From: an uncultured Gemmatimonadaceae bacterium
Lineage (GTDB): Bacteria > Gemmatimonadota > Gemmatimonadetes > Gemmatimonadales > Gemmatimonadaceae
Assembly (NCBI GenBank): GCA_963790305.1
Contig: CAWBOC010000006.1
Span: 256,001 to 320,000, forward strand
Length of the DNA stretch: 64,000 nucleotides
Reading direction: 5' to 3'
Shown: positions 14,322 through 48,229 of the stretch, one piece after another
Layout: each line of letters begins with the position of its first letter
Position numbering within the stretch: position 1 is the first letter of the stretch
The notes under the pieces: model-generated
Database searches by the model: none
The model's input: the letters and a program-made list of their open reading frames with translations, nothing else
Told to the model about the DNA's origin: nothing
Made by a program: the position numbers and the translations under genes

Positions 14322-15790
14322 CTCACCCGCCCGCGTACGAACTCGACGAATGTCCCAACCGGTACGCCCGTGGGCCCCTTCGGAAGCGCGACGAGATCCG
14401 TCTCCGAGTACGCCGTTCCGGCAATGTCGAGATGGACCCAGGGATAGCTGTCAGTGAATTCCTTGAGGAACATGGCTGCCGCGATAGCGCCAGCAGCACG
14501 CCCTCCGGAATTCTTGATGTCGGCGACGTCCGACTTGTTGAGCTCCTTGTAGTCCTCCCACGTCGGGAGGTGCCACCCCGGTTCGCTCGCGCGCTTTCCA
14601 GCGCCTAACACCTCCTGCACGAGCGCCTCGTCGTTTCCGAAGACCCCCGAGGCAGTGTGTCCCAGCGCGATGACGCACGCACCCGTGAGCGTGGCCGCGT
14701 CGAGCACCGCGGCGGGCTCGTAGCGACGCGCCCACGACAACACGTCGCACAACACGAGTCGCCCCTCGGCGTCGGTGTTGACGATCTCAATGTACTTCCC
14801 GAGATGGCTCTTGAGAACGTCACCGGGCTTGAAGGCGGTCCCGCTCGGCATGTTCGTGGTGCTGCCGACGAGCCCGATGACGTTGGCCTTGAGCTCCAGG
14901 CGGCCAATCGCGTCCATCGCGCCAAGCACCGCCGCGGCGCCGCACATGTCGAACTTCATCAGCTCCATGCTCTGCGCCGGCTTGATCGAGATGCCACCGG
15001 AATCGAAGCACAGGCCTTTCCCCACCAACACCACCGGACGCCCGGAGCCGCGCCGATGCTCGAGCGCGATGAGCTTGGGATCCTGCGGCGTCCCCTGGGC
15101 GACGCCGAGAAAGGAGCCCATTCCCTCCTCTTCGAGCTCCTTGCGGCCGAGCACGGTGACCTTCATGCCGTGGCGCTTGGCGATCTCGCGACCCGTATCG
15201 GCGAGGTAGTCGGGCGTGCACAGATTGCCCGGCATCATCGCGAGCCGTCGCGCCAGCGTCATCCCCTCGGCGATCGCGACGCCCGTCTCGACCTCCGCCT
15301 TCGCCCGCTTCTCATCCTGCACGACGACGACCGCCTCGTCAGGCGAGGGACGCTGCTCATCGTCTGGTGGCGGCGTTTTGGTCTCCGTGTATTCCCACAC
15401 GCCCATGGAAAGGCCGACCACCGCGCCCTCGACGCTTCCCGCCGCGCCGTCCTGATACCACGCGATCTCCCGGGCCCCGGTCCGCCGAGCGAAGCGAGCA
15501 GCGATCATCGCGGCGCGCCGGAGCGCACCGCCGGACTCGGTCACGGTCCCCATGCCGACGAGCAGAATCCGTTGCGGACCCTTCGTGCCACCGACGAGAT
15601 GCATCGTCTCATCCCGGCCGAAACGAAAATCCCGCCGATCGATGACCCGGGAGATCGCTCCGCCGAGTGCGTCGTCGAGTCCCTTGATGGCGTCGTCGAG
15701 CTTGGCGCCCTTGGCCAGCGGAAGAACGAGAAGCGGAACGTCGAGCGAGCGGAGCTGTCCGCCGCGAACGGAGAAGCGCAACGGGCTCAC
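14318..15790 (-). CDS. pepA: Leucyl aminopeptidase (M17)
   Basis: [38 protein letters not shown]. Confidence 0.96.
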
Positions 15791-17031
15791 GCCATGCCCT
15801 CGATGATGGCATCGGCGAATGCCGACGTGCTGACTTCGGTGGACCCGGGCATCTGGCGGGCGAGATCGTACGTCACGCGCCGCGACTTGATGGCATGCTC
15901 GATCCCTTTGACGATGAGTCGCCCGACCTCATCCCACTCGAGATACTCGAACATCATGACGCCCGAGAGGATGACGCTGCAGGGATTGACCTTGTCCTGA
16001 CCGGCGTATTTCGGCGCGGTGCCGTGCGTCGCCTCGAAGCACGCGAGACCATCGCCGACGTTGCCCCCTGGCGCCATACCCAGCCCGCCAACCTGGGCCG
16101 CGGCCGCGTCACTCAGGTAGTCGCCATTCAGGTTGGGCGTCGCGATCACGGAATACTCCGACGGGCGCAGCAGCAGCTGCTGGAACATGGCGTCGGCAAT
16201 GCGGTCCTTGATGACGAGACAATCGACCTTCGCGCTGCCGCTGATCTTCGCGAGATCGGCTTCGCTGATCACGTGCTCGCCGTAGCGTTCCTTCGCGACT
16301 TCGTAGCCCCAGTCACGAAAGGCGCCCTCGGTGAACTTCATGATGTTGCCCTTGTGGACGAGGGTCACCGACTGGCGGCCGGTTCTCAAGGCATAGCGGA
16401 TCGCCATGTCGACGAGGCGCTTCGAGCCGAACTCGGACATCGGCTTGATCCCAATGGCCGAACCTTCGCGGATGTCCTTGCCCATCGTGTCGACAATGAA
16501 GTCGCGAACGCGCTTCGCTTCCTCGCTGCCCGCCTTCCACTCGATGCCGGCGTAGACGTCCTCGATGTTCTCGCGGAAGATCACGACGTCGACCTTTCCC
16601 GGCTCCTTGACCGGCGCTCCGACGCCCTCGAAGTAACGCACTGGGCGAATGCAGGCGTAGAGGTCCAGCACCTGTCGCAGCGTCACGTTGAGCGACCGAA
16701 TGCCACCGCCCACGGGCGTGGTGAGAGGACCCTTGATCGAGACGCGAAACTCCTGCATCGCGTCGATGGTCTCCTGAGGCAGCCAATCGTTGTGCGCCTT
16801 GAACGCCTTCTCGCCAGCGAACACCTCCATCCAGGCAACACGGCGCTTCCCGCCGAACGCGCGCTCCACCGCGGCGTCGAAGACGCGTCGTGAGGCGCGC
16901 CAGATATCGGGTCCCGTCCCATCGCCTTCAATGAACGGGATGATCGGTGCGTCGGGAACGTTCAGCTTTCCATGGGAGAAGCCGATGCGCTCGCCATTCC
17001 GCGGCACTGTGGCGAATCGGTAGCTGGTCAT
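15787..17031 (-). CDS. icd: NADP-dependent isocitrate dehydrogenase
   Basis: [56 protein letters not shown]; own ATG at 17031. Confidence 0.96.
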
Positions 17032-17096
17032 GACTCGATCAGGGAGAGATGGCGCGCGAGCGCGGTCTACGGCCCGCCCGCGCGCGGAATGCGTGC

Positions 17097-18249
17097 CTAA
17101 CGTCGCTGATCGAGCGGCGACACCCGCAACCCACGCGGTCCGACATACTCGGCGCGCGGCCGAATCAGCCGGTTGTTCGCATACTGCTCCAGCAGGTGGG
17201 CCGCCCATCCCGACAGCCGGCTGACCGCGAACAACGGTGTGTACAGGTCGGTCGGAATCCCCATCACGTAGTACGTGGACGCCGAGTAGAAGTCGACGTT
17301 CGGGAGCAGGTTCTTCTCGGCTTTCATCGTTTCCTCGATGCGCCGCGACATCTCGAACCATTGCGGCGTCTTGTACTTGCTGCCGAGCTCCTCCGACATC
17401 CGGCGCAAATGCGTCGCGCGCGGATCTTCGGTTTTGTACACGCGGTGGCCAAAGCCCATGATCTTGCGCTTGCTCGCGAGGGCTTTCTTGATGAAGGGCA
17501 CCGGCTCCTCGCCTTCCTTCTTCATCTCGAGGAGCATTTCCATCACGGCGGTGTTGGCGCCGCCGTGCAGCGGACCCGAGAGCGTTCCGATCGCCGAGAC
17601 GATAGCGGCGTACATGTCGGCGAGCGTCGCGGCGGTCACGCGCGCGGCGAACGTCGAGGCGTTGAGCTCGTGATCGGCGTGGAGAATGAGCGCCGCATCG
17701 ATCGCCCGCTCTTCGAGCTTCTCCGGACGTCTGCCGAGCAGCCGGTAGTACACGTTGCCGGCAAAGGAAAGCGAGCGGATCGGCCTTGATCGGTTCCTTA
17801 CCCTGACGAATCTGCGCCCACGCTCCAAGAAGCGCCGCGATTTGTCCCTGAAGTCTCGCGGCGCGCCGCAGGTTCGCGGTGCGATCATCGACGGGAGACT
17901 GCTTGTCGGGATCGTAGAACGAGAGCTCGGACACGCTTGTCCGCAGGACGTCCATGGGGTCGGCGTCCCTCGGGTAGCGTTTGAGCGATTCGATGAGCGC
18001 CTGCGGGAGGAGGTAGCAGGAGCGAATCGTCTCCGCGAATCCGTCGAGCTCGGCTCGCGACGGGAGCTTGCCGTACCAGAGCAGGTAGACGACTTCCTCG
18101 AACGTCGTGTTCTCGACGAGATCGTGGATGTCGTACCCGCGATAGATGAGCTGGCCCGTCTGGCCGTTGACGTCGGTGATTTCGGACGGGCCGGTGACCA
18201 CATCTTCGAGGCCGGCCGCGGCCGCCTTTACGGTTGCCGAAGTTGCCAT
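17097..18249 (-). CDS. gltA: Citrate synthase (GltA/PrpC family); one extra base near 17776, probably a sequencing error
   Basis: N-terminal frame [20 protein letters not shown]-terminal frame [33 protein letters not shown]; removing one C restores DPSLSFAGN. Confidence 0.9.
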
Positions 18250-18395: not shown

Positions 18396-18479
18396 TACCC
18401 GGGGCGGGACTCGAACCCGCAAGAGCCGAAGCTCGGGGGCTTTTGAGGCCCCTGCGTCTACCGATTCCGCCACCCGGGC
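18396..18479 (-). tRNA. tRNA-Leu(CAA)
   Basis: Cloverleaf: GCCCGGG acceptor stem, GGGGC-CTCAAAA-GCCCC anticodon arm, long variable arm, GGTTCGAGTCC T-arm; CCA not directly encoded. Confidence 0.96.
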
Positions 18480-18523: not shown

Positions 18524-19051
18524 TCAGGGGCGACGTCCCACCGTATCTCCCCGCCGTGCTGGCCCGCCGCCACGGCGCCGCCCGCGCATGTCCTCCATCC
18601 GGCGTCGCACCTGGTCCTGAATCGCCAGATACCGCGCGCGCTGCGTGGGGGTCATGAATGACGAGAGCGCACGCTGCTCGCGTGAGAGAAGGTCGATGCG
18701 CCGACGTTGCACGTCGATGAGCTGGTCGACGTACCGCGCGACCCGTTCCTGATTCGCGCTGTCGCCACGCATGACCTCCGCACGCAGGCTGACCCGCACG
18801 TCGCGCTCTTGCTGGTTCAGCACGCGGCGCTCCGCTTCCATGTCACGATTCACTTCCCCGAGCCGGCGCATTTGATCGGCGGTGAGACCGAGCTGCTGCT
18901 GCACGACCGTCGCCGTGCGCTGGCGAAGGCGCTGCTCGAGCGCCTGTCGGCGCGCGGGTGCCGAATCCGGTTTGGCCCGTTGCGCGTCGACCGTGGACGA
19001 TGCGCCGATGGCCGAGATCGCGAGGAACAGGAGCATTCGCTGGAAGCGCAT
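18524..19051 (-). CDS. Periplasmic helical protein, Spy/CpxP-like
   Basis: Signal peptide; LGLTADQ and MTPTQ (LTxxQ-type) motifs; downstream of ECF sigma and anti-sigma. Confidence 0.7.
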   Translation of the reverse strand: MRFQRMLLFLAISAIGASSTVDAQRAKPDSAPARRQALEQRLRQRTATVVQQQLGLTADQMRRLGEVNRDMEAERRVLNQQERDVRVSLRAEVMRGDSANQERVARYVDQLIDVQRRRIDLLSREQRALSSFMTPTQRARYLAIQDQVRRRMEDMRGRRRGGGPARRGDTVGRRP

Positions 19052-19671
19052 CAGACGTCTCCCTCGAGAACGGGCAAGAGAACCGCGGGCTCGACATCGA
19101 GCTCGGTGTCGACGTCATCGAGGACCTCGAGCAGCGACTCGAGATCGGCGTCCGCAAGATCGCTGACGCCCCCGCCCATCACGAGCTCGATCCGCGGCGC
19201 TGGCTGCCCTGTGGTCGATGGCGTCGGCGCCGACCCAACAGGTGCAGGGCGCGTCGGCTCTTCGATATGCACTACGACGGGCGGCAGATCGGACGATCCG
19301 GGGGTGCGGTCAAGATTCGAGGCGAGGAGTGCCGCGACGGCAATCGCACCGACTGATGCCGCGGCCAGCCAGACGCGACGCGCCGGCGCGGCGACGCTCG
19401 ACGCTCGACGTCGGCGCGTCTGCGCCACGGCGGTGGTCGCGTCGCGGCGCAGCGCACTCGATCGCGCTACCGCGGCCACGATGCGCGCCGTATCGATCGA
19501 GGGCGTCGCGCTCAGGACACCATGCGCCTTGCGCACGAGCTCGAGCTCCGCGCGACATGCCGCGCACGTCGCGAGGTGGGCGTCGAGCGCGACGAGCGAC
19601 GGACCGCTCAGCGCACCGCGCGCGAGGTCCGGAAGCAAGTCACGCATTTCCATGTTCGTGCATTCACTCAT
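19051..19671 (-). CDS. Zinc-binding (zf-HC2) membrane anti-sigma factor
   Basis: HLATCAAC motif and one transmembrane helix. Confidence 0.85.
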   Translation of the reverse strand: MSECTNMEMRDLLPDLARGALSGPSLVALDAHLATCAACRAELELVRKAHGVLSATPSIDTARIVAAVARSSALRRDATTAVAQTRRRRASSVAAPARRVWLAAASVGAIAVAALLASNLDRTPGSSDLPPVVVHIEEPTRPAPVGSAPTPSTTGQPAPRIELVMGGGVSDLADADLESLLEVLDDVDTELDVEPAVLLPVLEGDV

Positions 19672-20215
19672 TGAGATACTCCTTCACCATGCGTACGGCA
19701 TTGTGATAGTGCACGCGCGCCGCTCCTTCGGTGGTCTCCACGACGTCCGCGATCTCCCGGTAGCTCAATCCTTCCGTCACGCGCAGCGTGAACACCGCCC
19801 GCTGCGTCTCCGTCAGTCCTTCCATCGCCGCCCGGACACGACCCTCTGTCTCCGTCGCGACGGCCGCACTCAATGGATCGTCGGCCGCCAGCGCATGCGT
19901 CTCGTCGATCGCCACCACCAGCGGCGCACGGCGGCTCGCGCGGGCCCGATCCCGACAGAGGTTGCGCGCGATCGAGAACAGCCACGTTCGCAGCGAGCTC
20001 GCCTCGCGAAACCGATCGATCGAGCCAAACGCGCGCACGAACGTGTCCTGCACCACTTCGTCGACCTCCGCGCGCTCGCCCATGCTCGCGACGAATCGCG
20101 ACACGGCGGGCGCGTGCCGCTCGACCAGGATGGTCGCCGCCCGCTCGTCCCCGCCGCGCCACCGCGCGATCAGCGCGACATCGCTCGGTTCCCCGTCCCG
20201 CCTCGGCTCGCTCAT
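19664..20215 (-). CDS. ECF RNA polymerase sigma factor
   Basis: VVQDTFVRA, TWLFSIARN, GLSYREIA (regions 2 and 4). Confidence 0.93.
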   Translation of the reverse strand: MSEPRRDGEPSDVALIARWRGGDERAATILVERHAPAVSRFVASMGERAEVDEVVQDTFVRAFGSIDRFREASSLRTWLFSIARNLCRDRARASRRAPLVVAIDETHALAADDPLSAAVATETEGRVRAAMEGLTETQRAVFTLRVTEGLSYREIADVVETTEGAARVHYHNAVRMVKEYLNE

Positions 20216-20255: not shown

Positions 20256-20274
20256 GTGCGGATTCCAGGCGTCC

Positions 20275-20323
20275 TTGACTTCGCCCCCGCGCCCTGGGTA
20301 CGTTCACACCGAACGCTCGTTCG
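20275..20323 (+). promoter_or_regulatory. Sigma70 promoter plus TetR/PaaR-type operator
   Basis: TTGACT-N18-TACGTT (20275-20304), then palindrome CGAACG-CT-CGTTCG (20310-20323) at the expected transcription start. Confidence 0.7.
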
Positions 20324-20345
20324 ACACCCGGTTCCAGGGGGGCGG

Positions 20346-20972
20346 ATGGCTCACCAGCAGGCGCACGACGAGAAGCTCGACGCACTCCTGGCGGCCGCCG
20401 CCCGCGTCTTCGCCAAGCGCGGCTACCACGAAACGAGCATGCGCGACCTCGCCCGCGAATCGGGGGTCTCGCTCTCCGGCCTCTACTACTACGTCAAGAG
20501 CAAGGACGAGCTGCTCTTCCTGATCCAGGACCGCAGCTTCGCGGCTGTCCTCGCGAGCATGGAAGAGGCCACGGCCGGGATCGAGAACCCGGTCGAGCGC
20601 CTGGCCCGCTTCGTCGACAACCACCTCGACTATTTCGCGTCGCACATGGCAGAGATGAAGGTGCTGTCGCACGAGTCGGGTGCGCTTTCGGGAGAGATGC
20701 TCTCGCAGGTGAACGCCAAGAAGCGGGAGTATACGCGAGTCCTGATGGATATTCTCGCCGACGTCGAGCGGACCTGCGGCGCGGCGCACGTGAATCGCCG
20801 AATTGCGACCTACACGCTCTTCGGCATGATGAACTGGATCTACAACTGGTACGATCCTCTCGGCGATCTCAGTGTCGAGGTGTTGAGCCAGAGCATCTGC
20901 CGGCTCTTCCTCGGCGGGTATGTCGGGATGCCGGTGTCGGAGTCGGTTATGCCACACATGACGGCGGGATAG
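20346..20972 (+). CDS. TetR family regulator (PaaR/KstR2-like)
   Basis: AARVFAKRGYHETSMRDLA..SGLYYYVKSKDELL HTH; GMMNWIYNWYDP C-terminal motif. Confidence 0.9.
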   Translation: MAHQQAHDEKLDALLAAAARVFAKRGYHETSMRDLARESGVSLSGLYYYVKSKDELLFLIQDRSFAAVLASMEEATAGIENPVERLARFVDNHLDYFASHMAEMKVLSHESGALSGEMLSQVNAKKREYTRVLMDILADVERTCGAAHVNRRIATYTLFGMMNWIYNWYDPLGDLSVEVLSQSICRLFLGGYVGMPVSESVMPHMTAG

Positions 20973-21021
20973 CACTCAGCTCGTTCCCGCGCACGCAGCA
21001 GCTTTTCACCAGAGGAATCCC

Positions 21022-21837
21022 ATGGCCACAGCCACCATGACCGAGCGCGAAGCGACCACCCTCGTTCGGTACCGCAAGGAGGGGCACGTCGCGATCTTCG
21101 AGCTCGATGATCCGCCGGCCAACACGTACACGCACGAGATGATGCGCCAGCTCGACGACTGCATCCTCCGCGCGCGTTTCGATGGCGACATTCACGTGAT
21201 CATCCTGCGGGGTGCGGGCGAGAAGTTCTTCAGCGCCGGCGCCAACATCAAGATGCTCAACGAGGCCGATCCGACCTGGAAGTACTACTTCTGCCTCCAC
21301 GCCAACGAGACGTTGAGCCGCCTCGAGCAGACCCCCAAGCTGGTGATCGCGGCGCTCAACGGCCACTGCGTCGGCGGCGGGCTCGAGATCGCCATGGCGG
21401 CGGACATTCGCATCGCCCGCCAGGACGCGGGGAAGATCGGTTTGCCCGAAGTCAACCTTGGCGTGCTGCCGGGCACGGGCGGGACACAGCGTCTCGCGCG
21501 GCTCATTGGCAAGGCGAAGGCGATCGAGCTCATGGTGACAGGGCGCACCTTCTCCTTCGAGGAAGCCGAGAAGATGGGGCTGGTCAACGCCGTGCTGCCG
21601 AAGGAGGACTGGTGGGACAACGTCCTCCTCTACGCCCAGCAGTTCACGCTGCCGAACAAGGCGGCGATGGCGGTGGGTCACATCAAGCGGTCGGTGCAAT
21701 CGGGGCTCGAGATGGCGTTCGAGTATGGGCTGTCGCTCGAGCGTGAGCTGCAGAGCCAGCTCTTCAAGAGCAGCGACGCCAAGGAAGGCATCGGAGCCTA
21801 CGTCGAAAAGCGGCAGCCACGCTTTCAGGGCCGCTGA
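21022..21837 (+). CDS. Crotonase-family protein resembling the N-terminal catalytic domain of BoxC (epoxybenzoyl-CoA dihydrolase)
   Basis: FSAGANIKML...WKYYFCLHANET, GGGLE, LPEVNLGVLPGTGG; the GANI-x-ML/WK-xx-FC-xxx-NET pattern is BoxC-like (recalled). Confidence 0.75.
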   Translation: MATATMTEREATTLVRYRKEGHVAIFELDDPPANTYTHEMMRQLDDCILRARFDGDIHVIILRGAGEKFFSAGANIKMLNEADPTWKYYFCLHANETLSRLEQTPKLVIAALNGHCVGGGLEIAMAADIRIARQDAGKIGLPEVNLGVLPGTGGTQRLARLIGKAKAIELMVTGRTFSFEEAEKMGLVNAVLPKEDWWDNVLLYAQQFTLPNKAAMAVGHIKRSVQSGLEMAFEYGLSLERELQSQLFKSSDAKEGIGAYVEKRQPRFQGR

Positions 21838-21839
21838 CC

Positions 21840-23306
21840 ATGGGCGCCGGCGTCGCGACCGAGACGCTTCCCACGCGGCTGTTCATCAACGGTGAGCAGC
21901 TGGAAGCCGCGGAGGGTCGAACCCATGACGTGATCAATCCGGCGACGGAGGAAGTGATCGCCTCGGTCGCGGCCGCCGGCGAGGGGGACGTCGATCGTGC
22001 GGTTCGCAGCGCACGCGCCACGTTCGAGTCGGACAAATGGCGAAAGACGAGCGCGCGTCAACGAGGCGAAGCGGTCTACCGCCTCGGCGAGCTGATTCTC
22101 AAGAACAAGGACGAGCTTGCCCGCCTCGAGACGCTGAACAACGGCAAGCCCGTCTTCGAGTCGATGATCGACGTGCGTCTCGCTGCCGCCACATACAAAT
22201 ACTATGGCGGCTGGGCGGACAAGATCCACGGGGAGACGATCCCCGTGGACGGACCGTTCCTGAACTACACGTTGCGGGAGCCGTTAGGCGTCGTCGGAGC
22301 GATCGTTCCCTGGAACTTTCCGATTTCGCTGGCCGCGTGGAAGGTGGCACCGGCGCTCGCCTGCGGTAACACCGTCGTGTTGAAGCCCGCCGAGCTCACG
22401 CCGTTCACGGCGATTCGAATGGCGGAGCTCGCCATCGAGGCAGGATTGCCGCCGGGCGCCTTCAACTGCATTCCCGGTCCAGGCTCGGTCGCCGGTAACG
22501 CGCTCGTCACGCATTCCGACGTCGACAAGATCGCCTTCACGGGCAGTACCGAGGTCGGGAAGCAGATCATGCGGGACGCGGCGGGAACGGTAAAGAAGAT
22601 TTCGCTCGAGCTGGGCGGGAAATCGCCGAACATCGTTTACGCGGACGCCGATCTCGACGCCGCGGCTCGCGGCGCCCTGACGGGAATTTTCTACGGCAAG
22701 GGTGAGGTCTGCGCGGCGGGATCGCGACTGCTCGTCGAGGACAGCGCTGCCGAGGAGATGCGCACGCGCATTCTCGAGCGGGCGAAGAAGATGGTAGCAG
22801 GCGATCCCCTTGACCCGAAGACCCGCCTCGGCGCGCTCGTCTCGAAGAAGCAGATGGACCGCGTGCTCGGCTATATCGAAAGCGGCAAGTCCGAGGGCGC
22901 GACGCTGCTGAGCGGTGGCGCCCGCACACCCGTGAATGGCAAAGGGTACTTCGTGCAGCCGACGGTGTTCGAGGGCGTCGAGCGCGAGATGACGATCGCG
23001 CGCGAAGAAATCTTCGGTCCCGTGCTGGCGATGATGACGTTCAGCGACGGCATGACGGGCGCCACGGAGCTGGCGAACGCGACGATCTACGGGCTCGCCG
23101 CGGGAATCTGGACGCGCGACATCAAGAAGGCCCTGCGCACCGCGCGGGAAATCCGCGCAGGCACGGTGTGGATCAACACGTACAACATGTACGACGCGGC
23201 CTCCCCGTTCGGCGGGTTCAAGCAGTCGGGTTTCGGCCGCGACCTCGGCGTGCACGCGCTCGAGGGGTACATGCAGGTCAAGTCGGTGTGGGTAGATCTT
23301 TCATGA
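21840..23306 (+). CDS. NAD(P)-dependent aldehyde dehydrogenase
   Basis: PWNFP, KPAE, FTGSTEVG, LELGGKSP, catalytic Cys in GEVCAAG, EEIFGPV. Confidence 0.95.
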   Translation: MGAGVATETLPTRLFINGEQLEAAEGRTHDVINPATEEVIASVAAAGEGDVDRAVRSARATFESDKWRKTSARQRGEAVYRLGELILKNKDELARLETLNNGKPVFESMIDVRLAAATYKYYGGWADKIHGETIPVDGPFLNYTLREPLGVVGAIVPWNFPISLAAWKVAPALACGNTVVLKPAELTPFTAIRMAELAIEAGLPPGAFNCIPGPGSVAGNALVTHSDVDKIAFTGSTEVGKQIMRDAAGTVKKISLELGGKSPNIVYADADLDAAARGALTGIFYGKGEVCAAGSRLLVEDSAAEEMRTRILERAKKMVAGDPLDPKTRLGALVSKKQMDRVLGYIESGKSEGATLLSGGARTPVNGKGYFVQPTVFEGVEREMTIAREEIFGPVLAMMTFSDGMTGATELANATIYGLAAGIWTRDIKKALRTAREIRAGTVWINTYNMYDAASPFGGFKQSGFGRDLGVHALEGYMQVKSVWVDLS

Positions 23307-23394
23307 GAATGCGGAATGCGGAATGCGGAACACGAGTAAGACCCTCGCTGGTTCGACGGTCTTACGAGAATTCCGCATTCCGCATTCCGCATTC
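23307..23394. repeat. Heptamer-arm hairpin element, (GAATGCG)3 ... (CGCATTC)3
   Basis: Perfect 24-bp inverted arms at 23307-23330 and 23371-23394, enclosing an inner GTAAGACC/GGTCTTAC stem. Confidence 0.9.
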
Positions 23395-23401
23395 GTAAGC
23401 A

Positions 23402-24613
23402 ATGTCCGTTATGCGCGAAGACGTCTTCCTCATCGACGCCGTTCGCACGCCCATCGGTCGTCACGGTGGCGTGCTGGCGCGGATGCGGCCCGATGATCTT
23501 GCGGCGACGGCGATCGCTGAGCTCGTCAAGCGCAGCGGCGTGGAGCCGTCGAGCATCGACGACGTCATTCTTGGGTGCGCCAATCAGGCCGGCGAGGATA
23601 CGCGCAACGTGGCCCGCATGGCGCTGCTCCTCGCCGGGCTCCCGGTCGAAGTGCCGGGCCAAACGGTGAATCGACTGTGTGGCTCGGGGCTTCAGGCTCT
23701 CGCCAGCGCCTCCCAGGCGATTCGTGCGGGAGAAGGCGACGTCTTCATCGCCGGCGGCGTGGAGAGCATGTCGCGCGCGCCCTGGGTGATGCTCAAGCCC
23801 GAGGATGGGTTTTCGCGCACGCTGCCCGCCATGGCGGACACGACGATCGGGTGGCGTTTCGTCAATCCGAGAATGCCGCGCGAGTGGACGATCTCCCTGG
23901 GCGAAACAGCCGAGGAGGTCGCGCGCTGCTACGGGGTCACGCGCGAGGAGCAGGATGCCTTCGCCCACGAGAGCCAGCAGCGCACCAAGCGGGCGCTCGA
24001 GGAGGATCGCTTCCGGGATGAGCTCGTTCCCGTGGAGGTCGTCACCAGGAGCGGAAAGACGGTGGTCGAGCGCGATGAGCATCCGCGACCCGAGACGACA
24101 CTCGAGACGTTGCGTGGGATGCGACCGGCGTTCGTAAAAGAGGGTGGAACCGTCACCGCCGGCTCGTCGAGTGGAATCAACGACGGGGCCAGCGCCGCCC
24201 TCGTGATGTCCGCTGACGCCGCGAAGCAGCTTGGGCATAAGCCCCTCGCGCGGATTGTCGCCACCGCGGTGGCCGGCGTCGCACCGAACGTGATGGGCAT
24301 TGGACCCGTACCCGCCACACGTCGCGTCCTCGAACGCGCCGGTCTCACCATCGACGACATTGATCTCATCGAGCTCAACGAGGCCTTCGCATCGCAGGCG
24401 ATCGCGTGTATCCGTCAGCTCGGCGCCGACCCGGACCGTGTCAACGTCAACGGCGGGGCGATCGCGCTCGGGCATCCGTTAGGCGCCTCGGGGGCACGCA
24501 TCGTCACGACGCTCGCGCACGAGCTGCGGCGCCGGGAAAAGCGGTACGGCCTGGCGACGATGTGCATCGGGGTCGGTCAAGGCATTGCGACGGTGCTGGA
24601 GCGCGTCACGTGA
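23402..24613 (+). CDS. pcaF: 3-oxoadipyl-CoA thiolase-like acetyl-CoA C-acyltransferase (PcaF/PaaJ type)
   Basis: [53 protein letters not shown]. Confidence 0.88.
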
Positions 24614-25404
24614 CGTACGAACAGATCCTGCTCAATCGCTCGGAAGGCATCGGGACGCTCACGCTCAACCGGCCCGACAAGCTCAACGCGTTTGCCGGGC
24701 GGATGCGCCAGGAGATTGCCGACGGCCTCGATGAGCTGGAGAAGGATGATTCCGTTCGGGTGATCGTCATTACCGGCGCCGGCCGCGGATTTTGCGCCGG
24801 GGGCGACGTCACGTACATGGGCGAGCTCGTCGAGCGCCGCGATGTGGAGTCGATGGCCGCGCTCGTCGATGCTGGACGTCACGTCGTCATGACGATCCGA
24901 AACTCTCGCAAGCCAGTGATCGCGAGTGTCAACGGAGTCGCCGCGGGGGGCGGCGCAAATCTCGCCCTTGCCTGTGACCTCCGAATCGCCAGCGAGCTCG
25001 CGAGCCTCGGGCAAACGTTCAACCGCATCGGCCTGCATCCCGATTGGGGAGGCACCTACTTCCTGCCCCGACTCGTCGGGCCGGCGAAGGCACTCGAGCT
25101 GTTCTGGTTCGCCGACATGATCGATGCGCGGGAGTGCGAGCGCCTCGGCCTGTTCAACAAGGTGGTCCCACACGCATTGCTCGTCGATGCGACACGCGCA
25201 TGGGCGCGCACGCTCGCGAGCAAGCCGGGTCTCGCGATCGCCTTGGCGAAGCGTGCCGTGTATGACTCGCCCGATCGCACGCTGCCGCAGATGCTGGACT
25301 ACGAGCTCGACGCACAGCTTCGGTGCTTCGAGAGCGGAGACGCAGGCGAAGGAATCCGCGCCTTCAGCGAGAAGCGCGCGGCACAGTTCGGAGCAGCCCG
25401 TTAG
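24610..25404 (+). CDS. Enoyl-CoA isomerase, PaaG-like crotonase
   Basis: [17 protein letters not shown] (no catalytic Glu), GLHPDWGG (Asp). Confidence 0.8.
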
Positions 25405-25425
25405 GACTTCAGGAGGATGTAACTC

Positions 25426-26592
25426 ATGGCAATGGCGAAGATTGGCAACTTTGACGACTGGATCGACCTGTTCAAGTTCTGGCAGGACGACATTGGTCTC
25501 CAGGTATCCGAGCTCAAGAACTACAAGTTCGACGTGAAGCTCGGCGAGCTCGAGGTGCCGGAGATCGAATTCGGCCACTACAAGGGGCAGCGGAAATGGC
25601 CGACGATCATGCACATCCCCGATCAGCGAATTCGAGATGCGCTGCAGAACCTGATCATCTTCCAGGGCGACACGGAGTTCGCCTCGGTGGAGCAGCAGCG
25701 TAGCCTGCTGCAGAATGCGCCGTCGGACTACGACCTGCTCTCGATCTATCGCGTGATGGCGGAGGAGATGCGCCACGGATGGCAGATGTCGTATCTCCTG
25801 GTGGCGCATTTCGGCGACGAGGGAAAGCGCGAGGCCGAGAAGCTGCTGGAGCGCCGCGCCGATGAGCACGAGCGGTTACTGGGCTCGTTCAACGAAGCGG
25901 TGGAGAACTGGCTCGACTTCTTCGCCTACACTCAGTTCATCGACCGCGACGGCAAGTATCAGCTGCAGATGCTCTCGACGTCGGCGTTCGCGCCGCTGTC
26001 CCGCTCGATGAAGCCGATGCTGAAGGAGGAGTCATTCCACCTCGGCACCGGGAACAACGGGTTGCTCCGCATCATCAAGGCGCGGCGGATCCCGACCGAT
26101 ATCATCCAGCGGTACCTGAACAAATGGGTGTCGACCGCGTTCGATCTCTTTGGCACCGACCAGTCATCGTCCGCCCAGTGGGCGTACGTCTGGGGACTGA
26201 AGGGACGGTTCGACGAGCGTACCAACGCGCAGCCTGCGGACGAGCGCAAGCTCAACGAGCACGCGCGCGAGCTGTATCGCCAGGAAGTGTCGGGACTGAT
26301 CGAGCGCCTGAACCAGCATATCCCCGCCGATCAGGTAAAGCTCAAGATCCCGAGCGAGAAGTTCAACCGGCGCATTGGCATCTGGAAAGGACAGACCTTC
26401 ACCGTCGATGGTGAGCCGATCGAGCGCGAGAAGTACAAGGAGTACGTCGCCTCGGTCACGCCGACGGCACAGGACCGCGCGTTCCTGGCCGACGTGTTCA
26501 AGGAGCGCGACTGGATCCTCGAGAAGAAGGTGGATGAGAAGGAGCGGGAGTGGCTCGCCGGGCCCTCCTCCGGAGGCGGCGCGGTGAATTGA
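25426..26592 (+). CDS. boxB: BoxB-like diiron aromatic-CoA epoxidase (ferritin-like, PaaA/BoxB family)
   Basis: QGDTEFASVEQQ, EEMRH, LLERR, DRDGKYQL, EESFH, GLKGRF; strong AGGAGG ribosome-binding site at 25411-25416. Confidence 0.85.
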   Translation: MAMAKIGNFDDWIDLFKFWQDDIGLQVSELKNYKFDVKLGELEVPEIEFGHYKGQRKWPTIMHIPDQRIRDALQNLIIFQGDTEFASVEQQRSLLQNAPSDYDLLSIYRVMAEEMRHGWQMSYLLVAHFGDEGKREAEKLLERRADEHERLLGSFNEAVENWLDFFAYTQFIDRDGKYQLQMLSTSAFAPLSRSMKPMLKEESFHLGTGNNGLLRIIKARRIPTDIIQRYLNKWVSTAFDLFGTDQSSSAQWAYVWGLKGRFDERTNAQPADERKLNEHARELYRQEVSGLIERLNQHIPADQVKLKIPSEKFNRRIGIWKGQTFTVDGEPIEREKYKEYVASVTPTAQDRAFLADVFKERDWILEKKVDEKEREWLAGPSSGGGAVN

Positions 26593-27297
26593 GCCGCTCC
26601 CCGGAGCTGATCGGCCATCGCGGCGCGCCGCGCGAGCGCCCGGAGAACACGCTTGCCTCGTTTCTCCGGGCGCTCGATTTGGGTGCGGACGCCGTCGAGC
26701 TCGATGTCCATGCGACGCGCGATGGCGTCGTCGTCGTGCATCACGATTTCGTTCCGCGAGCGGAGTCGAGCGTGGCCGCACTCGGCGGACGCCCAATAGC
26801 GGAGCTCACCGCGGCCGACCTCGGCACGTTTCAAGTGGCCGGGGAGCCGATCCCGACGCTTGCCAGCGTGCTCGAAGCGATTGGTGGGCGAGCAACGGTG
26901 TACGTCGAGATCAAGGGGCGGGACATTGAAGAGGCAGTCATTGCGACCATCGAGAGCGCTCCCTCCGCCGAGGCGGGTCGCGGTGCACTCATTCGATCAC
27001 CGCGCTGTGGTGCGCACCCGCACGATGCGGCCGGACCTTCCCTCGGGAATTCTGTCGGCGTCATATCTCATCGACCCACAGGGCGCGCTGCGCGCGGCGA
27101 AGGCGCGCGACTATTGGCAGGAAGGATCGATGGTCGATGAGGCGCTCGTCGACGCGATCCACGATGCCAAGGGGCGCGTGATCGCCTGGACCGTGAACGA
27201 CCCCGAGCGCGCGCGTCGCCTCGCATCGATTGGCGTCGACGGCATCTGCACCGATGTGCTGCAGGTCATAGGGCCCGCGCTCGCGAGCACATCGTGA
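26589..27297 (+). CDS. Glycerophosphodiester phosphodiesterase family protein; one frameshift near 26973
   Basis: GHRGA..PENT, VELDVHATRDG..HHD, VEIK, then second frame HSFD...AWTVND..GVDGICTD. Confidence 0.85.
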
Positions 27298-28158
27298 CCA
27301 TTCGTCGCATTGCCGTGATTGGGGCAGGCACGATGGGGCATGGTATCGCGTACGTCGCCTCGGCCGCGGGCTACGAGGTTCGCCTGGCCGACGCGGATGC
27401 GGCGACGCTCGCCACCGGGATGCGAGAGGATTCGCGAAGCGTTCGACAAGGCGATCGAGCGCGGAAAGGCGACGGCGGCCTCGCGAGACGAAGGGCTGAG
27501 ACGCCTCACGAGCGCCGGCAGCGCCGGCGAGGCTGCGCGGGACGCGGATCTCGTCATCGAGGCGGTGCCGGAGCGGCTCGAGCTCAAACAGTCGATCTTC
27601 CGGGAGCTCGAACGGTCGGTTTCCACCGAGGCGATCCTGGGCAGCAACACGTCGTCGCTCTCGATCACGCGGATTGCTGACGGTCTGGCGCACCCGGGGC
27701 GCGTGGTTGGCCTGCACTTCTTCAATCCCGTCCCGGTGATGAAGCTGCTCGAGATCGTCCGTGGGGAGCGCACGAGTGAGGGCGTCGTCGACAGCGCGCG
27801 GACCTTCGCGACCTCGCTTGGCAAGACAGCGATCCTCGTGCGCGATACTCCCGGATTCGCGACGAGCCGGCTCGGCGTCGTGCTGGGGCTCGAGGCCATT
27901 CGCATGCTCGAGCAGGGCGTCGCGTCGGCGGAGGACATTGACCGCGCGATGGAGCTGGGATACAATCATCCGATGGGACCGCTACGGCTGACCGACGTGG
28001 TCGGGCTCGATGTCCGTCTCGCGATCGCCGAGCATCTGTACGCGACACTGAAGGACGACACGTACAACCCCCCTGCCCTGCTTCGTCGCCTGGTGAGTGA
28101 AGGGAAGTTAGGCAAGAAGACGGGACGAGGATTCTACTCCTGGGAGAATGACCGATGA
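27294..28158 (+). CDS. 3-hydroxyacyl-CoA dehydrogenase; one frameshift near 27423
   Basis: VIGAGTMGHGIA, then IEAVPE, SNTSSLS, GLHFFNP, HPMGPL, GKLGKKTGRGFY. Confidence 0.9.
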
Positions 28159-28937
28159 CCGAACCGGAAGTCGTTCTTCTCGAGCAGCGTGGCCGCGTAG
28201 CGCTGGTAACGATGAATCGGCCGGAGAAGCGTAACGCGCTCGACGGTCAAATGCGGTGCGCGTTTCTCGGCGTCATGGATCGCGTTCGGCGCGACACGAA
28301 CACTCGGGCCGTCGTGGTCACCGGCGCCGGTGACAAGGCGTTCATCGCGGGCGCCGACATCAGCGAGTTCGAGGGGCGGTCACCCGTCGATCAATACCGC
28401 GTCATGCGCCTTCCCACCGTGTTCGACGCGATCGAGCGATTCCCGAAGCCGGTGATCGCCGCCGTGAACGGGTTCTGCCTTGGCGGCGGAATGGAGCTCG
28501 CACTCGCGTGCGACATTCGCCTCGCCTCGGCCAACGCCAAGTTCGGGCAACCGGAGGTCAACCTCGGCATCATCCCCGGCGGTGGTGGCACGCAGCGATT
28601 GCCCCGCATCATCGGGCTCGGTCACGCACTGCGACTGATCCTCACCGGCGACATGATCACGGCCGACGAGGCGCTGCGACTTGGGCTCGTGTCGGAGGCA
28701 GTTCCGGGCGACGTGCTACTCGACCGCGCGATCGCGATCGGCGAGCTGATCGCGTCGAAGAGTCCCGTGGCCGTTGCCGCCGCGAAGGAGGCGACGCGCG
28801 CGTCAATGAGCCTGCCGCTCGACGAAGGGCTGCGTCTCGAGACGGCGCTCTTCCAGCTCTGCTTCTCGAGTGAGGACAAGGCGGAAGGGGTGCGAGCGTT
28901 TCTGGAGAAGAGGGCGGCGAACTTCACGGGGCGATGA
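28155..28937 (+). CDS. Enoyl-CoA hydratase (PaaF/Crt type)
   Basis: AGADI, GGGMELA and QPEVNLG (both catalytic Glu present). Confidence 0.9.
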   Translation: MTEPEVVLLEQRGRVALVTMNRPEKRNALDGQMRCAFLGVMDRVRRDTNTRAVVVTGAGDKAFIAGADISEFEGRSPVDQYRVMRLPTVFDAIERFPKPVIAAVNGFCLGGGMELALACDIRLASANAKFGQPEVNLGIIPGGGGTQRLPRIIGLGHALRLILTGDMITADEALRLGLVSEAVPGDVLLDRAIAIGELIASKSPVAVAAAKEATRASMSLPLDEGLRLETALFQLCFSSEDKAEGVRAFLEKRAANFTGR

Positions 28938-29857
28938 GGAAGATCGAAGGCGGAATTCGGAATGCGGATTCGGAATCGGCAGGCATCCTTCCGCATTCCG
29001 CATTCCGTATTACGGACTGCCACATCCACATCCAGCCCTGGCGGCAGCTCAAGCCCGCCGTGATGGAGACCATGCGGCGCGGCAAGGAGGATCGCTTCGA
29101 GTTCCTGCTCGCGCTGATGGACGATCCCAAGCTCCTGCTTCGGATCATGGATGAGGAGGGCATCGACCGCGTCGGCATGGTGAACTATCCGAGCCCTGAT
29201 CTCATGGGGTTCACCAACGACACCAACGACTTCGCCGCTCGTTATGCGGAAGCGGACCCACGCCGGTTGATTCCCTACGGTGGCGTACACCCGCGTTTCG
29301 CCAAGGATGCAGCCGGTGAGGTGCGGCGACTCGTCGAGCTGGGCGTTCGGATGCTCAAGATTCATCCAAACCACCAATGCTTCCCCGCCAACGCGTACAC
29401 CGAAGGGCTCGATGCACTCGGCGTGTTGTACAAGGCGTGCGAGGATCACGGGCTGCCGGTCATGATTCACACCGGGACGAGCATCTTTCCGGGGGCGCGA
29501 AGCAAATGGGGAAATCCGATGGAGATGGATGACGTCGCCATCGACTTCCCGGACCTGCCCCTGGTGATGGCGCACGGCGGACGCCCGCTGTACATGGCCG
29601 AAGCGTTCTTCATCCTCCGGCGGCATAAACGCGTCTGGCTCGATCTCTCGGGAATTCCGCCGAAGGGCCTCCTCGGATACTTCCCGCGCATCGCCGAGCT
29701 CGAGGCGCAGCTGCTGTGGGGGACGGACTGGCCAAGTCCGGGTGTCGAGAGCATGCGCCGCAACGTCGATGACTTCCTCGGGCTGGCGCTGCCCGAGAGC
29801 ATCAAGCGCGCGGCGCTGGAGACAAATCCCGAGCGGCTACTACCCACGACAGTCTGA
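28934..29857 (+). CDS. Amidohydrolase_2 family metal-dependent hydrolase or decarboxylase
   Basis: DCHIH, LKIHP, IHTG, AHGG, WGTDWP. Confidence 0.85.
   Translation: MRKIEGGIRNADSESAGILPHSAFRITDCHIHIQPWRQLKPAVMETMRRGKEDRFEFLLALMDDPKLLLRIMDEEGIDRVGMVNYPSPDLMGFTNDTNDFAARYAEADPRRLIPYGGVHPRFAKDAAGEVRRLVELGVRMLKIHPNHQCFPANAYTEGLDALGVLYKACEDHGLPVMIHTGTSIFPGARSKWGNPMEMDDVAIDFPDLPLVMAHGGRPLYMAEAFFILRRHKRVWLDLSGIPPKGLLGYFPRIAELEAQLLWGTDWPSPGVESMRRNVDDFLGLALPESIKRAALETNPERLLPTTV
28946..29011. repeat. Degenerate heptamer inverted repeat inside the 5' coding region of the amidohydrolase
   Basis: GAAGGCG-GAATTCG-GAATGCG-GATTCG... paired with TTCCGCA-TTCCGCA-TTCCGTA. Confidence 0.8.
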
Positions 29858-33068: not shown

Positions 33069-33094
33069 GCATGTCTGCCGCGCGACCGGTCCGG

Positions 33095-33367
33095 TCAGGC
33101 TGCGGTCGTCGACGCCTCGGGATAGACGCTGACCTTATAGCGCGTCTTGTTCTTGTGCTCGAACTTCACGACGCCGTCGATGAGCGAAAAGATCGTGAAG
33201 TCGGAGCCGAGGCCCACGTTGCGTCCGGGGTGGTACTTCGTGCCGCACTGCCGGATGATGATGTTCCCGGCGCGAACGCGCTCCCCCCCGTACTTCTTGA
33301 CGCCGCGATACTTCGGATTGCTATCGCGACCGTTGCGGCTGGAGCCGACACCCTTTTTATGAGCCAT
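33095..33367 (-). CDS. rpmA: 50S ribosomal protein L27
   Basis: [26 protein letters not shown]. Confidence 0.98.
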
Positions 33368-33376
33368 ACTCGCCTC

Positions 33377-33694
33377 TCAGCCGAGCGTAATGTCGTTGAT
33401 GCGGACCTCGGTGAACCCCTGCCGATGGCCCTGCTTTTTCGAGTAGTTCTTCCGGCGCTTGAACTTGAAGACGACGATCTTGTCGCCCTTGCCGTGCTTG
33501 ACGACTTCGGCGGTCACCTTGGCGCCCGACACGAGCGGCGCGCCGGCGAAGACTTTCGTCCCATCAGAGCCGAGGAGCACTTCGTCGAACGTGATGCTAT
33601 CGCCCGCGTCGGCCTGAAGGCTTGGGATACGGAGCGTCTTCCCCGGTTCGGCACGAAACTGCTTGCCGCCGGTGCGAATGATTGCGTAAGTCAT
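33377..33694 (-). CDS. rplU: 50S ribosomal protein L21
   Basis: YAIIRTGGKQ, KRRKNYSKKQGHRQ. Confidence 0.98.
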   Translation of the reverse strand: MTYAIIRTGGKQFRAEPGKTLRIPSLQADAGDSITFDEVLLGSDGTKVFAGAPLVSGAKVTAEVVKHGKGDKIVVFKFKRRKNYSKKQGHRQGFTEVRINDITLG

Positions 33695-33734
33695 TTGTCT
33701 GCGGGAAGAACCGAGTAACTGATATAGTCGTAAT

Positions 33735-35883: not shown

Positions 35884-36438
35884 TTACGCTCCGCGCCGCA
35901 TGCGGAAGATGAGGTAGGCAAGCACTGCGGCGAATCCGAGGGCGGCGCGCCACTCACCGTGCCGCATGTAGAGGTTGAAGTCGAACCCTTCGCGGTCGCC
36001 CGTCCTCGCGGTGGCGGCACGCCAGGGTGTCGGGCGCGGAACGAAGGAGGGAACGTTGCGCTCCCACTCGTCATAGGCCTCGGGAAAGCGCGCGCGAATT
36101 CCCACCCGCTCATCCCGGATCGTGGGCCCGTAGATCAGCACGAAGAACGCAATGACGAGCAGAAGCAGGCTCCAATGGGCAGCGATGGCGAAGCCCGCCG
36201 CGATGAGAAAGGAGCCGAAGTACAACGGGTTCCGTGTGTGGGCGTATGGGCCCGTCGTGGCGAGGCGGTCGTTCTTCACGATGTGGCCCGCCGCCCATGC
36301 TCGAACGAACAGTCCGGCGAACGCGATTGCCGTCCCTACGACGAGGGTGACCAGCGTGGGGCGAGCGACGACGAGGTAGCCGGCAGCGAGCAGGAATCCG
36401 AGCGGGACCCGAATGCGGCGCGCCAGCTCGCGATTCAA
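35884..36438 (-). CDS. Isoprenylcysteine carboxylmethyltransferase / PEMT family membrane protein
   Basis: [17 protein letters not shown], transmembrane helices, VPSFVP; TTG start overlaps the upstream stop. Confidence 0.85.
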
Positions 36439-37652: not shown

Positions 37653-37662
37653 ACCGGTCTCG

Positions 37663-43416: not shown

Positions 43417-43611
43417 CTATGGGCTCGAAGCGTCGTCCTTTCGGGTCTCGGTCGCGGGTGGCCGCCGGCGGACGAAGCGCAGTAGAAACGCGACCAGGAG
43501 GACGACAATACCCGCGATGCGGAAATACGAATCGTCGGTGCGATAGCCCCACGTCCACAAGATCAATCCGATTACGAACAGCGCGAGCTTGAGGCGAACC
43601 GTTGGATTCAT
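43417..43611 (-). CDS. Small two-helix membrane protein
   Basis: Two hydrophobic segments; ATGA overlap with the upstream gene. Confidence 0.65.
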   Translation of the reverse strand: MNPTVRLKLALFVIGLILWTWGYRTDDSYFRIAGIVVLLVAFLLRFVRRRPPATETRKDDASSP

Positions 43612-48131: not shown

Positions 48132-48185
48132 GAAGAAGCCGTCAGAGTTCGAGGACGTGCGCGCGAGGTGGCGCACGCCGCCAAG

Positions 48186-48215: not shown

Positions 48216-48229
48216 CCACACTGGCGGAG

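Follow-up and report, generated by a model that had tools for sequence, protein, structure and literature searches.

The Box and Paa pathways and a ten-gene operon in Gemmatimonadaceae

Biochemical knowledge of the Box pathway for aerobic, coenzyme A (CoA)-dependent ring cleavage comes from a few Proteobacteria; elsewhere, the pathway has been annotated by similarity alone. In the described systems, BoxABC(D) of Azoarcus evansii and Burkholderia xenovorans, the epoxidase BoxB is reduced by BoxA, to our knowledge the only known electron donor of this enzyme, and the opening of the ring by BoxC also releases formate. The Paa pathway (PaaABCDE/PaaG/PaaZ/PaaFHJ) shares the epoxide strategy and is in some forms controlled by the TetR-type repressor PaaR. 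Elements of both pathways occur together in an operon of an uncultured Gemmatimonadaceae bacterium from soil (assembly GCA_963790305.1; 4.3 Mb, 13 contigs, G+C 64–69%, 94% complete), located at positions 20346–29857 (+) of the 64,000-nucleotide window analysed here, which comprises positions 256001–320000 of contig 6.

The operon consists of ten co-oriented genes, most of them overlapping, which encode (in this order) a TetR-family regulator, a crotonase (ECH1), an aldehyde dehydrogenase (ALDH), a thiolase, a second crotonase (ECH2), a BoxB-like diiron protein, a GDPD-family protein, a 3-hydroxyacyl-CoA dehydrogenase, a third crotonase (ECH3), and an Amidohydrolase_2 family protein. Start and stop codons overlap by four nucleotides at five of the junctions (thiolase/ECH2, BoxB-like/GDPD, GDPD/dehydrogenase, dehydrogenase/ECH3, and ECH3/amidohydrolase_2); the remaining gaps measure 2 nucleotides (ECH1–ALDH), 21 (ECH2–BoxB-like), 49 (TetR–ECH1), and 95 (ALDH–thiolase). 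The first-pass annotation of this region had claimed the same ten genes, and both the open reading frames and their matches to Pfam and NCBIfam profiles bear out their presence, strand, and order. The start that it gave for the operon (20275) does not hold, as this position is out of frame with the TetR gene, whose probable ATG is at 20346.

The operon shares with BoxABC(D) a diiron enzyme of the BoxB fold with identical iron ligands and the substrate-binding Gln116, a crotonase with the motif and the glutamate pair of the N-terminal domain of BoxC, an aldehyde dehydrogenase, and the end products expected via 3-oxoadipyl-CoA. By contrast, its epoxidase candidate is about 90–100 residues shorter, lacks four to five insertions, and falls outside the canonical BoxB clade. 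BoxA is missing, the candidate ring opener has one crotonase domain (271 amino acids) where BoxC has two (about 555 amino acids), the aldehyde dehydrogenase belongs to another subfamily, the regulator is of the TetR type instead of BoxR, and the entire lower pathway is encoded in the operon. Enzymes resembling PaaG, PaaF, PaaH, and PaaJ, and a TetR regulator with an operator that fits CNAACGNNCGTTNG, are features in common with the Paa pathway and its PaaR-regulated forms. However, PaaA and PaaK are absent, the oxygenase, presumably a monomer, is of the BoxB type, and there is no hotdog–ALDH fusion of the PaaZ type.

Sequence, fold, and gene context show directly which parts the operon has, how they are ordered and conserved, and that BoxA is absent. 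These observations point to an uncharacterised, compact variant of the Box pathway that would operate without BoxA and under PaaR-like control, a reading that we consider probable but far from certain. The substrate would most likely be benzoyl-CoA itself or an analogue that differs little in its ring substitution. The two key enzymes are not classified as BoxB and BoxC because several features that define these proteins were looked for and are absent, but they most likely work like them.

In the proposed route, the short BoxB-like enzyme would use O2 and two electrons, supplied by a reductant that is neither BoxA nor encoded in the operon, to epoxidise the ring of the CoA thioester. ECH1 would open the epoxide or oxepin hydrolytically to an acyl-CoA semialdehyde, which the ALDH would oxidise to 3,4-dehydroadipyl-CoA. 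ECH2 would move the double bond, ECH3 would hydrate it, and the dehydrogenase would oxidise the product, leaving the PcaF-type thiolase to form succinyl-CoA and acetyl-CoA. The TetR regulator would bind a palindrome upstream of its own gene and repress the whole unit until it encounters an acyl-CoA ligand, as does PaaR of Thermus.

No description of such a variant was found in the literature covered, which concerned BoxB or the box pathway in connection with Gemmatimonadota, Acidobacteriota, or BoxB-like proteins; subscription journals lay mostly outside this coverage, and a description may be in print there. In a 2026 survey on phenylacetic acid (PMC13186573), the words BoxB, Gemmatimon, and Acidobacter are absent.

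The epoxidase and ring-opening candidates

The diiron protein (25426–26592, +; 388 amino acids), which is the proposed aroyl-CoA epoxidase, is BoxB-like and not PaaA-like. It matches the BoxB profile (TIGR03225) with 246 bits but that of PaaA (TIGR02156; cut-off 280 bits) with only 44 bits; the search of the whole genome returned the gene with 204 + 32 bits for TIGR03225. Among the sequences in PDB, it matches BoxB of A. evansii with 201 bits (E 3e-58), the Sulfolobus protein SSO1313 with 67.5 bits, and PaaA with 25 bits. Its identity to an annotated BoxB of Mycetohabitans, which carries a canonical box cluster on plasmid pBRH01, is 37% over 91% of the length. The AlphaFold2 model (predicted local distance difference test, pLDDT, 92; predicted template modelling score, pTM, 0.90) agrees with the sequence comparisons: the top Foldseek matches are all BoxB structures (3Q1G/3PM5; query TM-score, TMq, 0.84–0.87; E ~1e-24), whereas PaaA reaches about 0.5. 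SSO1313 (PDB 4MUD; TMq 0.48) is another compact protein of the same superfamily but is much shorter (235 amino acids), much more distant, and uncharacterised.

The residues of the active site were located by transferring the list in PMC5489048 via the alignment with BoxB from PDB. Passages of that article name Glu120, Glu150, His153, Asp211, Glu240, and His243 as ligands of the diiron centre of BoxB and Gln116 as a residue that contacts the substrate. All six ligands are kept in the protein of the window (E84, E114, H117, D173, E202, and H205), as is the glutamine (Q80), and these seven residues are invariant in all 24 sequences of the short family that were compared. Further positions of BoxB are also well conserved in the family, namely F193 (24/24), T119 and S123 (23/24 each), and F203 (21/24).

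The alignment shows that the long BoxB proteins are extended at the N-terminus and carry four insertions, either internal or C-terminal, and that the short form has none of these additions. The same division appears in a tree of 23 sequences, where the long BoxB proteins (about 470 amino acids) form a clade (support 100/99) without any short form. The short forms lie outside this clade, unresolved at the base of the tree; the protein of the window groups with sequences from Gemmatimonadota and Rokubacteria (94/94) and not with PaaA or PaaC. Profile, PDB match, fold, and ligands thus uphold the earlier description of the protein as a short BoxB, with the qualification that it stands apart from canonical BoxB. 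The polarity of the tree only suggests that the short form might be ancestral, as the haloarchaeal PaaA/PaaC outgroup sits on a long branch. Other types of the BoxB superfamily were encountered in the course of the analysis: open frames of about 420–450 amino acids in Acidobacteriota, with 32–37% identity, and two forms that both branch outside the canonical BoxB clade, one of 495 amino acids from Planctomycetota and one of 421 amino acids.

The proposed epoxide- or oxepin-hydrolysing enzyme is ECH1 (21022–21837, +), a single-domain crotonase resembling the catalytic N-terminal domain of BoxC. Among all crotonases of the genome, it is the best match to the BoxC profile (83 bits; the next best has 57), and apart from this match, the profile search detected no BoxC in the genome. 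The match covers positions 43–174 of the profile and is below the cut-off of 712 bits; in the alignment, ECH1 and the N-terminal domain of BoxC are 41% identical over 132 residues. Both proteins contain the stretches FSAGANI..ML....WKxxFCxxxNET and GLPEVxLGVLPGTGG, including both glutamates of the hydratase type, and the GGGLE and LPE motifs of ECH1 align with GGGYE and LPE of BoxC. According to passages of the review PMC4498308, only the N-terminal domain of BoxC is catalytic, and the glutamate pair has a role in catalysis. In a tree of 21 crotonases, a small sample drawn from this genome and the fetched loci only, a split with 95/96 support sets the 12 other crotonases apart from five sequences of ECH1 and both domains (N- and C-terminal) of two BoxC proteins. 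A clade of ECH1 and the N-terminal domains of BoxC was not rejected by the approximately unbiased test (p-AU 0.263), which lends the clade no support either. ECH1 itself has a mean column identity of 78% across three phyla.

The relationship of ECH1 to the catalytic domain of BoxC, which the first-pass annotation had called half a BoxC, is nevertheless suggestive only, because ECH1 is closer overall to ordinary hydratases such as 2PPY. This protein from Geobacillus kaustophilus, whose PDB entry title assigns no function, is the nearest solved relative of ECH1 (237 bits) and carries the same stretch (FKxxFCLxxNET) and both glutamates.

According to passages of the same review, BoxC is also purified together with BoxB and lifts the inhibition of BoxB by its product. 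A predicted complex of the BoxB-like protein and ECH1 reached a score of 0.38, whereas the best of three controls scored 0.00; the runs agreed in 100% of the contacts, and the pLDDT of the partner was at least 90. Of 157 solved complexes, 116 attain this mark, as do 2 of 215 mismatched pairs, but the range from the mark up to 0.60 holds only 18 of the 157 solved complexes and both mismatches. The prediction therefore lends weak support to a complex of the two proteins.

Conservation, regulation, and the lower pathway

Homologs of the BoxB-like protein are numerous. A word-index search returned 5398 matches with E ≤0.001 among 7999 candidates, and an exhaustive search of representatives at 50% identity returned 964 with E ≤0.001, of which 141 had E ≤1e-30. 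Their names in the source databases are inconsistent (BoxB, PaaI, PaaA, or hypothetical). The gene is present in 34 of 151 sampled genomes of Gemmatimonadota; besides the genome studied here, the carriers comprise 3 of 31 genomes of the same family, 28 of 71 in a second family (f2), and both genomes of a third (f3), whereas the 46 genomes of other families have none. The nearest relatives of the proteins in the window are from metagenome-assembled genomes of Gemmatimonadaceae.

The neighbourhood was compared in the best 80 of 573 confirmed loci in species genomes, 77 of them from Gemmatimonadota, counting only those loci that extend far enough to include the gene in question. Gene order is kept in the 77 loci of Gemmatimonadota. 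TetR (55/55), ECH1 (57/57), ALDH (59/59), and thiolase (68/68) were found without exception, and ECH2 (70/71), GDPD (70/73), the dehydrogenase (68/71), and amidohydrolase_2 (59/61) nearly so. Among Acidobacteriota, 57 of 201 sampled genomes have a BoxB-type match, 11 of them of the short type (55 of 199 and 10, respectively, without the unpublished genomes G027 and G155). Ten short-type loci of this phylum encode ECH1 in seven cases (67–69% identity), TetR in six, and ALDH in three; amidohydrolase_2 lies within 8 kb in four (38–48% identity, one of them partial at the edge of the locus), and GDPD is present in none. ECH1 is also found near the BoxB-like gene in one locus each of Rokubacteria (L097) and Terriglobia (L099). 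The genes thus co-occur in other genomes, and the diiron protein does not group with PaaA or PaaC; the opposite outcomes would, according to the first-pass annotation, have refuted its reading. Because ECH1 recurs in the loci of these other groups, and TetR and ALDH in part of those of Acidobacteriota, the core shared across phyla is TetR–ECH1–(ALDH)–BoxB-like, and the full set of ten genes is an arrangement of Gemmatimonadota.

The regulator (20346–20972, +; 208 amino acids) is a TetR-family protein of the acyl-CoA-sensing type (TetR_N, 57 bits; TetR_C_24, 94 bits). Its longest open reading frame (20256–20972) begins with a GTG at 20256, but its start is likely the ATG at 20346, which places TetR_N at residue 14 instead of residue 44. 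The best NCBIfam match is FadR (67.7 bits; cut-off 200), and the relatives in PDB include FadR, KstR2, and DarR. A palindrome of 14 base pairs, CGAACGCTCGTTCG, at positions 20310–20323 (+), 23 nucleotides upstream of the ATG, is the probable operator of this regulator. It was found by eye, having been missed by the inverted-repeat finder at the settings used, and is the only exact match of the pattern CGAACGNNCGTTCG in the window.

The palindrome is not significant when only the window is considered (two matches with at most one mismatch versus 1.15 expected); its weight derives from the conservation of its position across loci. The pattern CGAACGNNCGTTCG occurs exactly once per locus in 38 loci of Gemmatimonadota and 4 of Acidobacteriota; apart from a copy of this region, none of the other fetched loci has it. 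Its position was checked in L141, L144, L147, L148, and L020 and coincides in each with the 5' end of the TetR gene. When one substitution is allowed, it is found within a stretch of 290 bases around the start of TetR in 52 of 63 assessable loci, which is an undercount, as the query had a 5' extension of 30 codons. The palindrome is conserved across both phyla.

The palindrome agrees with all ten specified positions of CNAACGNNCGTTNG, the consensus for PaaR of T. thermophilus, a TetR repressor of phenylacetate genes, as quoted from Sakamoto et al. in a passage of PMC6651687. TetR_N, a C-terminal domain of the acyl-CoA type, and an operator of the form CNAACGNNCGTTNG next to the regulated genes are features that the regulator shares with PaaR-type repressors of aryl-CoA catabolic operons. 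The Thermus repressor is reportedly released by phenylacetyl-CoA. Scans of the region for promoters and terminators yielded nothing above chance; a TTGACT at 20275–20280 with a TACGTT 18 nucleotides downstream is a weak guess at a –35/–10 pair that fell short of the scan thresholds.

The remaining enzymes, together with the ALDH, appear to account for all of the steps that lead from a C6 semialdehyde-CoA to succinyl-CoA and acetyl-CoA. The proposed semialdehyde dehydrogenase, in the role of BoxD, is an NAD(P)-dependent ALDH (21840–23306, +; Aldedh, 600 bits). Its description as generic proved apt: the top NCBIfam matches are BADH and StyD, all of them below cut-off, and the top matches in PDB are betaine-aldehyde and retinal dehydrogenases, which makes it a class-1/2 enzyme. 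The thiolase (23402–24613, +) is probably of the 3-oxoadipyl-CoA (PcaF/PaaJ) type; TIGR02430 (pcaF) is the best of 46 thiolase models (577 bits, 20 below the cut-off of 597). ECH2 (24610–25404, +), the proposed 3,4- to 2,3-dehydroadipyl-CoA isomerase, is a PaaG-like crotonase whose best model is PaaG (TIGR02280, 228 bits; cut-off 345). In the alignment, it lacks both catalytic glutamates but has an aspartate in the motif HPDWGG, which we take to be the catalytic residue of PaaG. ECH3 (28155–28937, +) retains both glutamates and is an enoyl-CoA hydratase of the PaaF or short-chain type (PRK05809, 290 bits; PaaF, PRK09674, 259 bits with a cut-off of 371). The dehydrogenase (27294–28158, +; start codon GTG at 27294) is PaaH/Hbd-like by its profile matches; the best are models of 3-hydroxybutyryl-CoA and 3-hydroxyacyl-CoA dehydrogenases (274 bits), and PaaH scores 210 bits. 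PaaA was the one Paa oxygenase component searched for (not PaaB, PaaC, PaaD, or PaaE), and its only match in the genome, a weak one (44 bits), is to the BoxB-like gene of the operon; since no PaaA is encoded elsewhere in the genome, the genes of the lower pathway do not serve a Paa system.

Two members of the operon have no obvious role in it. The GDPD-family protein (26589–27297, +), which begins with a TTG at 26589 that overlaps the stop codon of the BoxB-like gene, has the usual GHRG...PENT...ELD motifs and no apparent function in acyl-CoA metabolism; its gene is translationally coupled on both sides. The Amidohydrolase_2 protein (28934–29857, +; PF04909, 131.7 bits) has no NCBIfam match, and its sole match in PDB is the uncharacterised BB4693 (63.7 bits). 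The Amidohydrolase_2 family includes metal-dependent hydrolases, lactonases, and decarboxylases.

The genes for GDPD and the dehydrogenase are both interrupted in the assembly. GDPD is read in two frames (positions 1–111 and 138–241 of the Pfam profile), and the GxGxxG N-terminus of the dehydrogenase is in a different frame from the remainder. Each gene has one extra base relative to the closest relative, locus L094 (96% protein identity), where both are in a single frame; removal of this base restores 235 codons for GDPD and 287 for the dehydrogenase, which are normal lengths. Contigs from four soil runs in public archives, which represent two samples and two studies (gaps in cover at 26058–26433 and 28032–28200), are in some pieces near-identical to the window (e.g., 251 bases with one different letter) and leave out the base at 26970 in GDPD in four of four runs and that at 27425 in the dehydrogenase in both covering runs. 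One of the matching runs may be the source sample, which makes their independence incomplete. Two genes outside the operon are split in the same manner, namely those for citrate synthase (15787–18249 and 17097–18203, –; profile positions 1–145 and 142–357), whose first frame continues into isocitrate dehydrogenase, and AtuA (45167–46093 and 44728–45276, –; 1–265 and 266–437). Four split genes in 64 kb suggest indel errors in the assembly. Because the public contigs lack the extra bases, L094 is unbroken, the corrected lengths are normal, and citrate synthase and AtuA are split likewise, the breaks in GDPD and the dehydrogenase are most likely consensus errors. That both are real and the operon is decaying in this organism, as the two splits would imply if taken at face value, is a negligible possibility given the intact copies in L094, the lack of the extra bases in the near-identical contigs, and the same kind of split in a housekeeping gene.

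Missing partners, rival explanations, and neighbouring genes

Several observations weigh against a BoxA-independent Box pathway. BoxA, whose absence from the operon the first-pass annotation had noted, is lacking in the genome as a whole: the best match has 34 bits (cut-off 459), tblastn found none, and no match exceeded the cut-off in any of the 151 sampled genomes of Gemmatimonadota or in three genomes of other phyla, including those that harbour the loci of Rokubacteria and Terriglobia. Neither the operon nor the genes downstream of it in Gemmatimonadales (M16 peptidases, a transporter, and an aminotransferase) nor the loci L097–L099 contain a reductase, and there is no aryl-CoA ligase in or near the operon. 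The match of the diiron protein to the BoxB equivalog model is about half of the cut-off (499 bits), and two pocket residues are changed in the short family: F206 is replaced by tyrosine in 23 of 24 sequences and T210 by isoleucine or valine in 22. The peptide T210–D211 of BoxB has a role in regioselectivity, according to a passage of PMC5489048. Likewise, the closest solved relative of ECH1 is the hydratase 2PPY, with BoxC only in 41st place among the matches in PDB (103 bits), and the BoxD and PaaZ types are absent from the best 25 profile matches of the ALDH. ECH3 is encoded in only 35 of 68 loci of Gemmatimonadota (33 are without it), the BoxB-like gene stands alone in three of the ten loci of Acidobacteriota, and the conservation within a single phylum may reflect plain vertical inheritance.

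The genome-wide search for a ligase that the first-pass annotation had proposed returned a single member of the benzoate-CoA ligase family above cut-off (389 versus 375 bits), located on another contig (C9, 772984–774603). It was rejected as the dedicated ligase of the operon because its close orthologs (at least 56% identity), found in 15 other sampled genomes of Gemmatimonadota, rarely co-occur with the BoxB-like gene (two genomes, G301 and G330); it also sits in a cluster of the 2-aminobenzoyl-CoA type, which counts against a Box-like route as well. More distant ligase matches (34–42% identity), which occur in 23 of the 33 carriers of the BoxB-like gene and in 35 of the 117 genomes without it, were not used, as the genomes are related and do not provide independent evidence. 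Two further matches on contig C7 were set aside, one an acetyl-CoA synthetase and the other a lone AMP-binding gene without telling neighbours. The cluster on C9 (764001–783900) encodes a fusion of FAD_binding_3 and Oxidored_FMN (778 amino acids), a crotonase, an acyl-CoA dehydrogenase, the ligase, and RidA; genes for GCV_T, two amine oxidases, and a Rieske oxygenase come next. Its layout is typical of the 2-aminobenzoyl-CoA route and would represent a second CoA-dependent aromatic route of this genome.

The changes in the pocket are open to other explanations. Together with the position of the short family outside the canonical BoxB clade and the association of amidohydrolase_2 with the operon in Gemmatimonadota and, in part, in Acidobacteriota, they could indicate that the same chemistry acts on a substituted aroyl-CoA (amino-, hydroxy-, or carboxybenzoyl-CoA), with the amidohydrolase removing or processing the substituent or a lactone by-product. 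This guess, which the first-pass annotation had also made, is rather unlikely, as the protein retains five of the seven second-shell residues by which BoxB holds the benzoyl group, no candidate for a substituent-specific enzyme could be put forward (the amidohydrolase itself matching neither an NCBIfam model nor a characterised structure), and the enzymes of the lower pathway resemble those for an unsubstituted C6 dicarboxyl-CoA. Another interpretation of the altered pocket is a β-oxidation operon without an aromatic substrate. An alicyclic or aliphatic acyl-CoA would be degraded under a FadR-like regulator, and the diiron protein would serve to desaturate or hydroxylate the acyl chain. The absence of a ligase and a reductase, the generic ALDH, the proximity of ECH1 to ordinary hydratases, and the best NCBIfam match of the regulator would all accord with it; however, the conserved set of ligands and substrate-binding residues of BoxB, the 3-oxoadipyl-CoA type of the thiolase, the PaaG-like isomerase, the BoxC motif in ECH1, and an operator of the PaaR and not the FadR type leave it only a small chance.

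That operator, which fits the consensus of the phenylacetate regulon, and the PaaG-like ECH2 raise the question whether the substrate is phenylacetyl-CoA. In such a pathway, the BoxB-like protein would replace PaaABCE in a genome without PaaA, ECH2 would act as the epoxide–oxepin isomerase (the role of PaaG), and ECH1 and the ALDH would replace PaaZ, as in the alternative oxepin-CoA hydrolase of the crotonase type. ECH1 and ECH2 do match the model "oxepin-CoA hydrolase, alternative type" (129 and 191 bits), but both scores are far below its cut-off of 300 bits. The diiron protein is far nearer to BoxB than to PaaA, no phenylacetate-CoA ligase (PaaK) was found in the 94%-complete genome, and BoxB does not accept phenylacetyl-CoA, according to a passage of the review PMC4498308. 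The chance of this substrate is smaller still than that of a non-aromatic one.

If the operon does encode a Box pathway without BoxA, its short BoxB might constitute, together with the BoxC-like crotonase of a single domain, a minimal BoxA-independent module for epoxidation and ring cleavage that relies on a non-dedicated reductant and is common in soil-dwelling Gemmatimonadota and Acidobacteriota. Such a module could have its own substrate range and could even be the ancestral form, from which insertions gave rise to textbook BoxB and a duplication of the domain to BoxC. As a whole, we regard this scenario as conceivable but doubtful. What stands apart from it is a distinct family of short BoxB proteins with a conserved set of partners and without the only known electron donor. 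If these proteins are active, aerobic, CoA-dependent ring cleavage in abundant and mostly uncultured soil phyla would use a different and simpler set of enzymes, counts of "boxB" in metagenomes would mix at least two functional types, and the reduction of BoxB-type enzymes would become testable in a two-protein system. The conserved operator offers a route to the effector and hence to the substrate.

The operon is flanked on its 5' side by a divergent pair of genes for an extracytoplasmic function (ECF) sigma factor (19664–20215, –) and a zf-HC2 anti-sigma factor (19051–19671, –); an ECF sigma factor occupies the same position in most of the Gemmatimonadota loci listed. Two Amidohydro_1 genes and then RNase G follow on the 3' side. 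An open reading frame of 215 amino acids without Pfam match (33071–33718, +), located between the amidohydrolase genes and RNase G, is kept in many loci of Gemmatimonadota (36–59% identity). The only RNA family detected in an Rfam scan of the window was one tRNA (18396–18479, –). Farther downstream, a run of genes related to acyl-CoA metabolism (43608–51929, –) encodes a crotonase, AtuA, a carboxyl transferase, methylmalonyl-CoA mutase, and MeaB; an acyl-CoA dehydrogenase is encoded at 36435–37682, and the region looks like a catabolic neighbourhood of the branched-chain or acyclic-terpene type.

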